64,000 nt of DNA from Eledone cirrhosa. Its lineage: Eukaryota. The notes below the pieces were generated by a model. It saw only the letters and a program-made list of their open reading frames with translations, searched no databases and had not been told where the DNA came from. Positions within the stretch are counted from its first letter, which is position 1; the number at the start of each line of letters is the position of its first letter. Where the stretch lies: assembly GCA_964016885.1 (NCBI GenBank), contig OZ024745.1:46314001-46378000 (forward strand), written 5' to 3'. This document shows, piece after piece, positions 35,680 through 44,194 of this stretch. The position numbers were made by a program, and so were the translations under genes.

Positions 35680-36225
35680 CACACACACACACACACACAC
35701 ACACATATATATATATATATATATATATATATATATATATTTATAGTAATAATAATAAATTTGAAGACTAAAATCCAAAGAGGGCTCGATAAGGATAAAT
35801 ATATATCAAATATATAAGAACCGCAGAGCAAATATGTTATTTTAATTAATATATATATATATTTATATATATACATGAAGCAGAAAAGAGAGGAATACAC
35901 ATATATATGTGTGTATATATATATATGTGTGTGTTCAAATTATATGGGATATAAAGCCAACACATATTTATCTGCATTTCTTTACTGTTTTATAAAGAGC
36001 TCGGAATTTCTTCCTTGAGCTTGTAGGGGAATATTGTTAGTTTTTAACTTGACTCTTCAATTTCATATATATATATATATATATATATAATGTAGATAAA
36101 TCTACCAAGAGTTTATGGTAGTGTCCAATCCGTATGAAGAACTCAATGTATTCCGGATATCATGGAAAGAAGAGATGTAATGAAAAATCACTTTCGGTGA
36201 AAGATAAACGGTATACAGAGTCAAG

Positions 36226-38269
36226 ATAAAATATTAAACAAATAATGAATAAAACAATGAAACAGTTCCTTATATTAAACAAAAAAAGTTCATTATTTAA
36301 CGATCGTTTCTAGGATATATATGTGTTAGAATTGGCATGCATATTCAACAGATCTATGTACAAAATTATACAAAATTATACAAACTATCAAGATTAAATA
36401 TACATACCAACACATATATACGCCGTCTTCAGAAATAATGAAATATATTTATTGATAATAACAACAATTCAAAATTTCAGGTCCGTTTGGGAACAAAATT
36501 GACCAATGAAAATACAAAAGGTTTAATGCAGTTCGGTGTGTGTATATACATGTAACTACCCTTACACATATTTTACAAAAATGTATGCTCAACTTGTATA
36601 CGCATACCAAAAGGATGGATGCAAATACAAAATTTCAAGGTTAATGTCTCTGTAAGTTTATAATGCACAGATAAGATGCGTATAGACACATAAATATGAA
36701 ATAAGTGTATACACATATTCTCATACTCACACATATCCGTACAATCACACACACACGCGCGTATATGCATAAACATACACATAACTACGAACATACAAAC
36801 ACACACACACCCCCACTCATATATATATATGTGGATATAAAATCCTAAGCACATGGATATTAATTCACTCACATAAACACTGGCACACACATTTAGATCA
36901 AGATACAGAAATTAGGTGGGAGGGGGGGAGAGGTCAGTATTCAACTGTTTGGGCAGACTGCTTATTATAGATGTATCTATAAACTAAGAAAATAAAAAAT
37001 AATAAATAATAAATAAACATTAAAAAGGAAAGAAAAGAAAAAGAAAAAAGAAAAAAGAAATATATCAAGAAAATATATATATATATATATATATATATAT
37101 ATATATATATATATATATATATATATATATATACATACATACATATATATACATATATATATATATATATACAAACACATACATACATATACACACATCC
37201 ACACTTAGAACATACATACACACACATATATAAACATATACATATACACACATACATACATATACACACATACATATAAATACACATATATATATATATA
37301 TATATATATATATATATATATATACACACATATACACATATAATCACACATACTATATAGACACACATATATATACACACATACACGCACATATACATAC
37401 ACTTACATACTTATATACATACAGATATACACATACATACCTATATATACACACAAATACATACAGACATACATACATACATACAGACAAATACTTACGC
37501 ATCCATATATCGGTATATACATACAAACACCACTACATTCTCACACAACTCAGACATACAAAGAAAAAGGTATATACCTATACACATATACATATACAAA
37601 TAGATAAACATATACATATATATATATATATATACACACATATATATATATATATATATATATATATATACATACACATATACACACATATACATACATA
37701 CACATACATACATGTACACACACATAGATATATATACATACACACATACACACATACATATATAGTCATACACATACATACACCTACACGAACATACACA
37801 TACACATATATAAAGATATATATACACACACACACACACACATATATATAAAAAATAAAGATATATATATATATATATATATACATACATATACATACAC
37901 ACATACATAGACATATATGTACATACATACACATACATACATACATACACACACATACATACATATATATATACACACATAGACATATACATACATACAC
38001 AGACAACATACATACACACACATATATACTCATACATAGAATTAGATATATATTCATACATACATACGCACTTACATATACTCATATATACAAATACATA
38101 CGCATCCATATATGCGTATATATATAGAAACACCACTACACCCTCACACAACTCAGACATACAAAGAAAAAGGCATATACATATACATATATACACGCAT
38201 TAATAGAGATATATATACACATATATATATATATATATATATATACACATACACTTATATATATAGACC
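36226..38269 (-). repeat. Left arm of the about 2-kb inverted repeat (inverted pLTR)
   Basis: Identical 105-aa shadow ORFs at 36573-36890(-) and 43530-43847(+); the arms differ mainly in microsatellite length. Confidence 0.92.
36289..36442 (-). ncRNA. Hammerhead ribozyme motif, mirror copy
   Basis: Reverse complement of 43978-44131. Confidence 0.7.
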
Positions 38270-40205: not shown

Positions 40206-42100
40206 TAACATTATTTTAGAAATTAATTTAATTTAAATGTTAGTTAACCTATAAATTTAATTTAATTAAAATTCTATTACAGATGAGAATATAAAATATT
40301 ATGTAATCATAAATTGTGAAAAACCTTTAAATATTACTAATATATACTTAGTAATTTAATTTATAGATTAATTTTAATTTATTTAAACCTTTTATTATAA
40401 TTCCTTTACAGATAAAATATAACAAAATATCGTGTATCCAATGACAGAGAAATAATTTTTAGTATTATAGACCTAATTAATATACATTTTAGAAATATAT
40501 TTATAATTTGGTTTTAAATTTAGTCAACCTAAAAATTTAATTTAATTGGCTTAAAATTAGTATCCTTATACAGACGAATTGCAGAATGTCATGTAATCAT
40601 AGAATGGGATGTGTTTTGGATATATACCTAGTTAATATATTCTTTGCAATTTTTGAAAAAATATGTATATGTATATATGTATGTGTATGTGTATGTGTGT
40701 GTATGTGTGTATATATATATATATATATGTATATATATGTATATATATATGTGTATGTATATGTATATGTATATGTATTAATTTTGATTTCTATTTGCAT
40801 ATAATTATATTCTGCTATTGATAAAATACAATATCTGTTTTATTTATTATATACCTAATTAACATATACTATAGAAATAAATATATAATTTTTAATTTAG
40901 TTAACCTATAATTTATATTCTACTACCGATGTAATACTTTATTTGTTTTTTCCCTATTACTAAATTCATTTCCTAATATTGATACCATAACGTTATTAAC
41001 TTTAATTTAGTTATACTATAATTAATACTCTACTACTATTTAACTTCAAAATTCTGCTTCAAATATTATAAACCTAACTAATTTACACCTTAGAAATCAA
41101 TATGTTAACTATCTTTAGTTTAGTTAACATATAATTAATGGTATACTTATTTATTTTGAAATGCATAAATTTTGCCTTATTTCTTATTTATTGTATTTCC
41201 TAACACTGAAACTATGTAAAAACATACATTGGATCCAGATACGGATAATATTCTATGTTTCTTGAAACATATATTTACTATAATCCCCTTCTCCAACCCC
41301 CCCCCCTTTCCCCCATACTATTATCATCTGTGTTTGTAAGCATGTATGTATGAATATATATGTAGGTAGGTGTATATATGTTTGGGTATTTATATCTGAA
41401 TATAAAAATACATATATGCGCATGCAAATAAGAATGTAAGATTGTGTGTGTATATATATGTGTGTATGTATATATATATGTGTATATATGCATGTGTATA
41501 TATATGTGTATGTGTATGTGTGTATATATATATATATATATATATATATATATATATATATATATATATATATATATATATATATATATATATATATATA
41601 TATATATGTGTGTATGTATGTATGTATATATGTGTGTGTATATATATGTATGTCTCTCTATTTATATGTCTATCTTCGTATCTATGTGGATATATGTGTG
41701 TGTGTGCATGTATACACATATATGTGTTTACGTGTATATGTGTGTATGTGTATATATGTGTGTGTGCACACACATATATATGTGAGTGTGTGTATGTGTG
41801 TGTGTATATGTATGTGTATATATATATATATATATCTATGTGTGTATATATGTCTATATTCGTATGTGTATATATATATATATATATATATATATATATA
41901 TTATTTATTATTATAATATAACTTATGTGTATGTGTGTATATGTGAGGGTGTGTATATGTATATATATGTGTATATATATGTGTAAAAAAATATATATGT
42001 GTGCATGTCTGTTTTTTATGTGTGTGTGTATATATATATATGTGTATATATATGTATATGTGGGTGTTTGTATGTGTGTTTATGGTTGTATGTGTGTGTG

Positions 42101-44194
42101 GGTCTATATATATAAGTGTATGTGTATATATATATATATATATATATATATATGTGTATATATATCTCTATTAATGCGTGTATATATGTATATGTATATG
42201 CCTTTTTCTTTGTATGTCTGAGTTGTGTGAGGGTGTAGTGGTGTTTCTATGTATATACGCATATATGGATGCGTATGTATTTGTATATATGAGTATATGT
42301 AAGTGCGTATGTATGTATGAATATATATCTAATTCTATGTATGAGTATATATGTGTGTGTATGTATGTTGTCTGTGTATGTATGTATATGTCTATGTGTG
42401 TATATATATATGTATGTATGTGTGTGTATGTATGTATGTATGTGTATGTATGTACATATATGTCTATGTATGTGTGTATGTATATGTATGTATATATATA
42501 TATATATATATATATATATATATATATATATCTTTATTTTTTATATATATGTGTGTGTGTGTATGTGTGTGTGTGTATATATATCTTTATATATGTGTAT
42601 GTGTATGTTCGTGTAGGTGTATGTATGTGTATGACTATATATGTATGTGTGTATGTGTGTATGTATATATATCTATGTGTGTGTACATGTATGTATGTGT
42701 ATGTATGTATATGTGTGTATATGTGTATGTATATATATATATATATATATATATATATATATGTGTATATATATATATATATATGTATATGTTTATCTAT
42801 TTGTATATGTATATGTGTATAGGTATATACCTTTTTCTTTGTATGTCTGAGTTGTGTGAGAATGTAGTGGTGTTTGTATGTATATACCGATATATGGATG
42901 CGTAAGTATTTGTCTGTATGTATGTATGTCTGTATGTATTTGTGTGTATATATAGGTATGTATGTGTATATCTGTATGTATATAAGCATGTAAGTGTATG
43001 TATATGTGCGTGTATGTGTGTATATATATGTGTGTCTATATAGTATGTGTGATTATATGTGTATATGTGTGTGTGTATATATATATATATATATATATAT
43101 ATATATATATATATATATATATATATATGTGTATTTATATGTATGTGTGTATATGTATGTATGTGTGTATATGTATATGTTTATATATGTGTGTGTATGT
43201 ATGTTCTAAGTGTGGATGTGTGTATATGTATGTATGTGTTTGTATATATATATATATATATATATGTATATATATGTATGTATGTATATATATATATATA
43301 TATATATATATATATATATATATATATATATATATATATATATATATTTTCTTGATATATTTCTTTTTTCTTTTTTCTTTTTCTTTTCTTTCCTTTTTAA
43401 TGTTTATTTATTATTTATTATTTTTTATTTTCTTAGTTTATAGATACATCTATAATAAGCAGTCTGCCCAAACAGTTGAATACTGACCTCTCCCCCCCTC
43501 CCACCTAATTTCTGTATCTTGATCTAAATGTGTGTGCCAGTGTTTATGTGAGTGAATTAATATCCATGTGCTTAGGATTTTATATCCACATATATATATA
43601 TGAGTGGGGGTGTGTGTGTGTTTGTATGTTCGTAGTTATGTGTATGTTTATGCATATACGCGCGTGTGTGTGTGATTGTACGGATATGTGTGAGTATGAG
43701 AATATGTGTATACACTTATTTCATATTTATGTGTCTATACGCATCTTATCTGTGCATTATAAACTTACAGAGACATTAACCTTGAAATTTTGTATTTGCA
43801 TCCATCCTTTTGGTATGCGTATACAAGTTGAGCATACATTTTTGTAAAATATGTGTAAGGGTAGTTACATGTATATACACACACCGAACTGCATTAAACC
43901 TTTTGTATTTTCATTGGTCAATTTTGTTCCCAAACGGACCTGAAATTTTGAATTGTTGTTATTATCAATAAATATATTTCATTATTTCTGAAGACGGCGT
44001 ATATATGTGTTGGTATGTATATTTAATCTTGATAGTTTGTATAATTTTGTATAATTTTGTACATAGATCTGTTGAATATGCATGCCAATTCTAACACATA
44101 TATATCCTAGAAACGATCGTTAAATAATGAACTTTTTTTGTTTAATATAAGGAACTGTTTCATTGTTTTATTCATTATTTGTTTAATATTTTAT
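42101..44194 (+). repeat. Right arm of the inverted repeat (3'UTR/pLTR of the PLE)
   Basis: See the left arm. Confidence 0.92.
43978..44131 (+). ncRNA. Type I hammerhead ribozyme motif with a very long stem-loop II
   Basis: ttcattattt-CTGAAGA-..tatatatgtgttgg...ctaacacatatata..-GAAA-cgatcg-TT-aaataatgaa; 10-bp stem I; palindromic ACGATCGT; base of stem II imperfect. Confidence 0.72.

Follow-up and report, generated by a model that had tools for sequence, protein, structure and literature searches.

The window analysed here is a stretch of 64,000 nucleotides (nt) of the Eledone cirrhosa genome (GenBank assembly GCA_964016885.1, contig OZ024745.1, positions 46,314,001 to 46,378,000, forward strand), and its segment 36090-44194 holds one copy, both truncated and inverted at the 5' side, of a high-copy and young Penelope-like element (PLE). 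We found that the two arms of inverted insertions of this family almost always finish at different fixed 3' ends, one at a short end (S) and the other at a long end (L), and the counts favour twin priming from these two fixed sites over fold-back. The features of the window copy, including its open reading frame (ORF), the parts coding for reverse transcriptase (RT) and its pseudo-long terminal repeat (pLTR), are as follows.

36065..36088, no strand assigned: left-hand (AT)12 target tract, from the sequence
36090..36225, minus: 136-nt tail between S and L, on the left arm only
36192..36202, minus: TTTCAC(C/G)GAAA mini-hairpin 24 nt after S, a candidate RT start signal
36226..38273, minus: inverted arm, a copy of the final 2.05 kb of 3' region plus pLTR
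36289..36442, minus: mirror copy of the hammerhead motif
38266..38286, plus: inversion junction, with GACC microhomology, a 15-nt duplicated ORF piece and TGAA microhomology; the ORF resumes at 38281
38268..40205, plus: 5'-truncated RT and GIY-YIG ORF (645 of 813 amino acids (aa), 7 of them from the duplication)
38511, 38700 and 38799, plus: ORF motifs A, B and C (YRDD)
39780, 39840-39890, 40074 and 40158, plus: ORF motifs CxCx5C, VYK..YIG, CxxC and CxH
Between YRDD and CxCx5C, after the thumb, plus: insert of about 92 aa rich in Asn, Thr and Lys
40206..43977, plus: 3.8-kb microsatellite-rich 3' region, part of the element
43978..44131, plus: type I hammerhead motif, predicted cut after 44121
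43981, plus: A of TCATT, stop point of the family's short arms and putative transcription start
44194, plus: short 3' end S
44195..44214, no strand assigned: right-hand (AT)10 target tract, from the sequence

The element and its protein

The inverted arms (36226-38273 and 42096-44194) were 97.1% identical over 2,103 columns by BLAST, and a pairwise alignment gave 2,055 matches with 6 mismatches, 3 of them internal and 3 at the junction; it also had 68 gap columns, almost all of which fell within microsatellites. An earlier sequence-only reading of this DNA had described near-identical arms of which the left one alone continues into a terminal segment (36090-36225), and the arm alignment bore out both points. 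In the window copy the S arm measured 5.9 kb, reaching into the ORF, and the L arm 2.2 kb. A target-site duplication was unreadable inside (TA)n. Since 40206-44194 aligned to a tandem unit on sequence C1 of the genome (3,848 matches, 58 mismatches and 126 gap columns), the microsatellite-rich stretch after the stop codon is part of the unit.

The frame at 38268-40205 (plus strand) was open for 645 codons up to a TAA stop; the stop-to-stop frame reached 719 aa only by running back into a microsatellite. About 172 N-terminal residues and the start codon were missing, the first Met being residue 146, within RT motif B, so that the window copy cannot encode the full protein. The open RT-GIY-YIG frame of about 645 codons in the sequence-only reading was therefore confirmed as open but not as intact, being a 5'-truncated remnant with no ATG, and the window copy is an inert passenger. 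The complete protein, found elsewhere in the genome, is 813 aa long with the GIY-YIG endonuclease (EN) at its C-terminus. Full-length copies carry RWR, DKT, FDITMGSSD, GLYRDD, CxCx5C, CxxC and CxH and no CCHH; RVRWRA and SDKTGN are among the parts that lie outside the truncated copy. In the window itself we found CNCRNKANC (CxCx5C), CRLC (CxxC), CNH (CxH) and a VYK..YIG core whose R, H, E and N aligned with 12 relatives.

Membership in the PLEs was upheld by a telomerase-related RT and GIY-YIG in one ORF, as in EN-bearing (EN+) PLEs, by pLTRs from partial tandems together with an inverted 5'-truncated copy and a tail, and by the predicted protein structure (pLDDT 86), whose nine best PDB fold matches were telomerase RTs. 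Pfam returned no family for the truncated or the full protein, and the sole match in a PDB sequence search was a weak one to a retron RT; 118 relatives were found at 31-48% identity. The Hydra clade has been defined by RWK, DKT, a divergent RT4(B), CxCx5C, CxxC, CxH, the lack of CCHH and (TA)n targets, and RWR, as in the protein studied here, also occurs in Hydra-1_Crog (PMC8557442). The divergent RT4(B) of our element, FDITMGSSDSAQITDLVG, has no long insert and aligned by eye to the Hydra rows of Fig. S7 of Craig et al. (PMC8557442), and by eye the motifs fitted these rows and not those of Penelope, Nematis or Neptune. The 813-aa ORF lacks an N-terminal EN or CxC domain, its EN being C-terminal as in the Hydra clade. 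It showed neither the Naiad/Chlamys set of features (N-terminal GIY-YIG, CxC domain, IFD, DKA) nor that of Penelope/Poseidon, Neptune and Nematis (CCHH in the EN, DKG, MGSP-type RT4). Insertion into (TA)n, a Hydra trait, was observed at both window ends and at 2,033 + 4,237 exact end-(TA)n junctions. As judged from these motifs, the element is almost certainly a Hydra-type PLE remnant, and the suggestion that CxCx5C before GIY-YIG and the (TA)n context recall this clade held. A different Hydra family, Hydra-1_Obim, is listed for Octopus bimaculoides (PMC8557442), and by eye our protein is clearly another one. A paper on Octopus vulgaris repeats reports recent Penelope-like insertions, with no clade detail in the part available (PMC13282606).

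A search of the 3.0-Gb genome with the RT part returned 45,894 candidates, and the 133 scored matches listed among them all had at least 99% identity; about 50 of these 133 had the full 830-codon frame (hand count). The window copy was 99.8% identical to the nearest and 97.8% to the furthest of 29 fetched copies. The identity to the nearest copy indicates a recent insertion, as had been proposed, and the open frames suggest that the family, previously called possibly active, is probably still able to move. Complete units measured 6.65-6.68 kb and stood in tandem arrays of four to six. In the arrays located at C6:49.52-49.56 Mb and C1:183.73-183.76 Mb the ORFs are intact and match that of the window copy at 99.6-99.7% identity; such arrays do not tell a multimeric from a circular template.

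Two 3' ends and paired arms

The ends S and L are fixed and lie 136 nt apart. They were counted by exact patterns across the element's own genome, which gave at least 2,033 S ends, 4,237 L ends (plus 19 with the window's extra base) and 307 tail-into-leader junctions; these counts are lower bounds, the S pattern missing subfamilies, and reversed-pattern controls gave 0. At tandem junctions the 136-nt segment separates the pLTR core from the leader that precedes the following ORF, which identifies it as the PLE tail. The pairing of ends was tallied on C1:1-99.6 Mb, the stretch where both end lists were complete (45 S and 100 L). Among 35 outward-facing pairs within 20 kb, 34 were S+L (18 and 16 by orientation), and the 35th proved to be two separate S+L insertions. 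Of the L ends that the exact patterns left without a partner, 40 were looked at; an inverted partner lay nearby for 20 of them, and these partners were S-type in 19 cases, atypical in 1 and L-type in 0.

The TTTCAC(C/G)GAAA hairpin had only two matches in the 6,679-nt unit. One follows S at a distance of 24 nt and the other follows L at 16 nt, and from their positions the two hairpins are candidate RT start signals. A sister family of the Hydra type (L131 and relatives, at C1:241.21 Mb and elsewhere; 48% aa identity, at least 150 RT matches) was two-ended as well. It had 548 exact short ends, a 176-nt tail, an 81-nt domain II and a CCGAAGA hammerhead core; its ends S' and L' lie 176 nt apart, and the inverted partner was L' in 9/9 cases seen among 20 S' loci. 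All four sites (S, L, S' and L') finish in AT, and a TT(A/G)(A/G)CTC-like word comes next, after 0-4 nt, as judged by eye and on four sites only. At C7:47.011-47.012 Mb a truncated sister-family ORF was joined straight to a pLTR of the family studied here, by nested insertion or template switch. Independent data agreed with the two-ended architecture of the family, at places other than the window locus. With 35700-36900 as query, 418 raw reads of one public run, labelled as another organism, passed from the element into (TA)n at S; a contig labelled as a third organism turned round at the position equivalent to 43981. None of the public sequencing runs listed with element sequence was RNA, rows of small share having been set aside.

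The two arms of one insertion were alike in sequence. Over about 194 nt they differed at 1.2 positions (31 pairs), against 11.0 between insertions (2,131 pairs); an arm's own partner was nearest or tied in 28/31, and 49 locus-private variants were common to both arms, with 48 in one arm only. Near-identity together with shared private variants points to one template, one source or later homogenisation. The reach of the arms varied. In 44 resolved pairs, complex and unresolved loci being left out, S reached further in 19, L in 5 and both equally in 20, and 9 pairs had no common sequence; some arms were longer than one unit.

The hammerhead motif and the probable start of the RNA

The type I hammerhead motif at 43978-44131 consists of a 10-bp stem I (43978-43987/44122-44131), the core CUGAAGA (43988-43994), GAAA at 44110, a nearly fully paired domain II of 115 nt and a palindromic stem III, with the predicted cut after U44121. 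The 10-bp stem I and the domain of about 115 nt in the sequence-only reading were found as described, mirrored at 36289-36442. The stretch 43979-44131 folded at -46.3 kcal/mol (z = -5.96), and 0/200 shuffles were as stable. Rfam gave no hammerhead among 102 matches at E <= 1, so that the call is made from motif and fold. Core nucleotides and stems I and III were intact in 115/116 copies. The hammerhead fold was predicted to lie 3.2 kcal/mol above the best fold, and 4.5 kcal/mol when the RNA begins at 43981; the better predicted fold buries the hammerhead core. Within domain II, the commonest variants kept pairing in 14/18 variable pairs, and pair 43999/44105 was G-U (22), A-U (24) or G-C (16), never A-C, among 64 distinct copies.

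A giant domain II sets this motif apart. In the 26 Hydra hammerhead rows of File S2 of Craig et al. (PMC8557442) stem II is 3-7 bp with short loops, in contrast to 115 nt here, and the earlier remark that the long stem II recalls Hydra therefore failed. Comparison hammerheads (PMC4209133) share a short palindromic helix III, an extra unpaired position beside the core and low predicted monomer activity; their helix II is 6-8 bp, as opposed to the 115-nt arm. By analogy, the short palindromic stem III is of the type that depends on a second copy (dimer).

The 5' stop points of the arms were collected from 130 terminal arms at 75 fetched loci. The 5' edge of the hammerhead was reached by 92 of them, and 41/92 ended within 342-352 nt of L. 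Not one of the short arms (0/93) stopped at the predicted hammerhead cut; arms traversed the cut site and ended 140 nt upstream of it. Of 126 core-bearing copies, 48 had no match to the upstream element sequence (2 of these being upstream variants), and 26 began exactly at A43981. Two pattern counts, 3,211 and 552, were set aside as a measure of stops at 43981, the longer of the patterns being specific to a subfamily. The halting of short arms at 43981, on the 5' border of the hammerhead, rather than at the cut site makes uncut RNA the likely template. The initiator consensus is TCA(+1)KTY, and the window reads TCATT with its A at 43981. An initiator-like TCACT occurs in a PLE pLTR (PMC3846280), and an internal Penelope promoter with an initiator has been reported (PMC2377424). 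A43981 is probably the RNA start. A splice junction at 43981 was considered and rejected for want of a preceding AG and of a shared exon upstream, unlike D. virilis, where an intron ends at the 5' end of helix I (PMC4209133).

A transcript spanning both arms could pair over 2 kb. The putative start sites in both arms face outwards, so such a double-stranded RNA would need a host promoter, and no host exon or promoter was identified among the 58 of 92 window frames scanned, where the matches were to long interspersed element (LINE) RT and PHD only, plus two weak ones. A signature of ADAR editing was rejected as unproven: A>G and T>C variant types numbered 9 and 6 in domain II (p = 0.10), 16 and 20 upstream, 5 and 8 in the tail and 33 and 34 in the ORF, and 13 and 5 among the 49 variants common to both arms, with no segment significant. 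The window is dense in transposons. Several truncated LINE ORFs, in most of which a PHD finger follows the RT, lie at 6221-8149, 9314-10534, 16709-17731, 33480-35327, 57492-59225 and 60370-62355. A second, unrelated family of short head-to-head (TA)n insertions adjoins the element at 44215-44610 and recurs at 12170-12400 and 12890-13430, with about 35 extra bases on one arm, like the one-tail pattern of the PLE. Immediately to the left of the element there are further short repeats flanked by (TA)n tracts (35468-35740 versus 11344-11620, and 35705-35841 versus 52285-52419).

Origin of the inverted insertion

Twin priming from two fixed RNA start sites is the likely origin of the insertion. The GIY-YIG domain would nick both strands of (TA)n; one RT would start at L and another at S, each primed by one nick via AT microhomology. 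Both would run toward the 5' end of an RNA that begins at the initiator-like A43981 and is copied uncut, and the cDNAs would be joined head to head by microhomology at their stop points. In the window, the S-primed cDNA would have extended for 5.9 kb, as far as the ORF, against 2.2 kb for the L-primed one. Two features would keep the RNA uncut: a hammerhead fold whose predicted stability is 3-4.5 kcal/mol below that of a fold burying the core, and a short palindromic stem III of a kind dependent on a second copy. Two independently primed cDNAs fit all arm-length classes (S longer, L longer, equal and non-overlapping). The biochemistry of a relative is consistent with this scheme, since the Anolis Poseidon PLE in vitro nicks and extends both strands, uses two internal starts bounding the tail and copies mainly uncut RNA (PMC11167929).

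Fold-back self-priming, in which a single cDNA folds over onto its own strand, or onto an antisense template, and copies itself, the tail disappearing or being added as the endonuclease resolves the intermediate, has been proposed for palindromic PLE junctions (PMC3846280), and a fold-back-type origin for the tail (PMC8557442). It predicts common haplotypes and equal stops, as in 20/44 pairs, 4 of them away from 43981, and an S/S insertion at C1:166.45 Mb also fits it. However, a fold-back copy of an L-primed cDNA cannot exceed its template, yet S was longer in 19/44, the window included (5.9 versus 2.2 kb), and an S-primed cDNA does not contain the tail. That either arm may be the longer and that 9/44 pairs lack any common sequence also argue against fold-back and for twin priming. 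Fold-back is contradicted for the 19 S-longer pairs and survives for some equal-length pairs only; as a general origin we regard it as improbable. Copying of two separate RNAs, or of two repeats of a tandem or circular RNA, by two enzymes, with one end of each kind dictated by an asymmetric protein-DNA complex, would account for the arms that exceed one unit and draws on the existing arrays of four to six units. The hammerhead could yield unit-length or circular RNA, a hypothesis from the retrozyme literature (bioRxiv 10.64898/2026.07.22.740005), and overlapping arms do require double copying of one RNA stretch. Against this, arms share locus-private variants (49, versus 48 in one arm only) despite 307 source junctions, and they run on past the cut site to end points 140 nt upstream of it, a pattern that cut monomers would not produce; we hold this origin to be unlikely. 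Finally, long, near-perfect, microsatellite-rich inverted repeats are difficult to assemble. An assembly or library fold-back artefact is nevertheless very hard to credit: the arms differ by 3 internal substitutions and several microsatellite lengths, they end at two different family-wide sites and meet at a microhomology junction with a small duplication. The S+L architecture recurs at dozens of other loci, and the S end and an inverted junction appear in independent public runs, which upholds the inversion as real.

Several observations weigh against twin priming from two fixed sites or against parts of our account. The S/S two-armed insertion at C1:166.45 Mb, beyond the tallied range, is genuine, and our samples derive mainly from a single chromosome arm. 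A partner was not found for about a third to half of L ends (single L in 21/75 fetched loci), and one-armed insertion is also common. Shared haplotypes could be explained by later gene conversion or by one dominant source locus. The hairpins lie at unequal distances from their ends (24 versus 16 nt), and by eye the 11-nt motif was not seen after sister-family ends. In the sister family the 5' ends occupy a zone of about 40 nt at the 5' border of the hammerhead, and three sit near the cut site. An extra G before A43981, present in 7/26 copies, is ambiguous as cap-derived, several cases being explained by the other arm. For the Anolis enzyme in vitro, start sites did not differ between the strands (PMC11167929). 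The clade call, for its part, is a motif comparison by eye.

Twin priming may be carried out by a single PLE ribonucleoprotein, a tentative model to which we give slightly less than an even chance. Two RT active sites would sit at the two hairpin-marked starts of the same uncut RNA, and the two strands of the doubly nicked (TA)n would prime one site each; the rear enzyme would copy again what the front enzyme had just reverse-transcribed, and the function of the giant hammerhead arm would be to hold the ribozyme inactive in the template. If true, this would explain the PLE tail and the inverted pLTR in one step.

Compared with described systems, this is a known kind of element in unusual form, with a long unit, a giant domain II and a long tail. 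It resembles the Hydra clade (PMC8557442) in its single RT and C-terminal GIY-YIG ORF, RW(K/R), DKT, divergent RT4(B), CxCx5C, CxxC, CxH, lack of CCHH, (TA)n target and candidate sense hammerhead in the pLTR. Described Hydra elements measure 1.1-3.0 kb, generally <3 kb (File S1, PMC8557442), whereas the unit here is 6.65-6.68 kb; the 3.8-kb microsatellite-rich 3' region, the insert of about 92 aa and the thousands of near-identical ends are also peculiar to it among the described Hydra families. A head-to-head inverted 5'-truncated copy, a tail at one end and an AT-rich target are shared with other PLE inverted pLTRs, but the tail described there is optional or often at one end and 30-40 bp long (PMC3846280, PMC8557442), compared with 136 nt here and 176 nt in the sister family, and the present analysis puts numbers on the pairing of one S with one L and on arms that do not overlap. 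As is likely here, Anolis Poseidon copies uncut RNA; it too has an AC-loop hairpin near its start sites, which lie inside the ORF (PMC11167929), whereas the putative ones here lie in the leader upstream of the ATG.

In twin priming of L1, each of two nicks primes a cDNA, and microhomology then links the pair, which yields a 5' inversion. There the second primer acts at variable internal sites and the pieces do not overlap, whereas in our family the starts are fixed and the arms usually overlap. The origin of PLE inverted repeats and tails is stated to be unresolved (PMC8557442, PMC11167929). Our literature search, which mostly excluded subscription journals, turned up no statement of the one-of-each rule or of twin priming in PLEs. 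Hydra-type elements can exceed twice the described length, bear an outsized hammerhead arm and escape Pfam and Rfam. Together, the family offers thousands of very young insertions, starts 136 nt apart that are safely distinguishable and many intact ORFs, and the origin of PLE arms and tails becomes testable by counting and in vitro.

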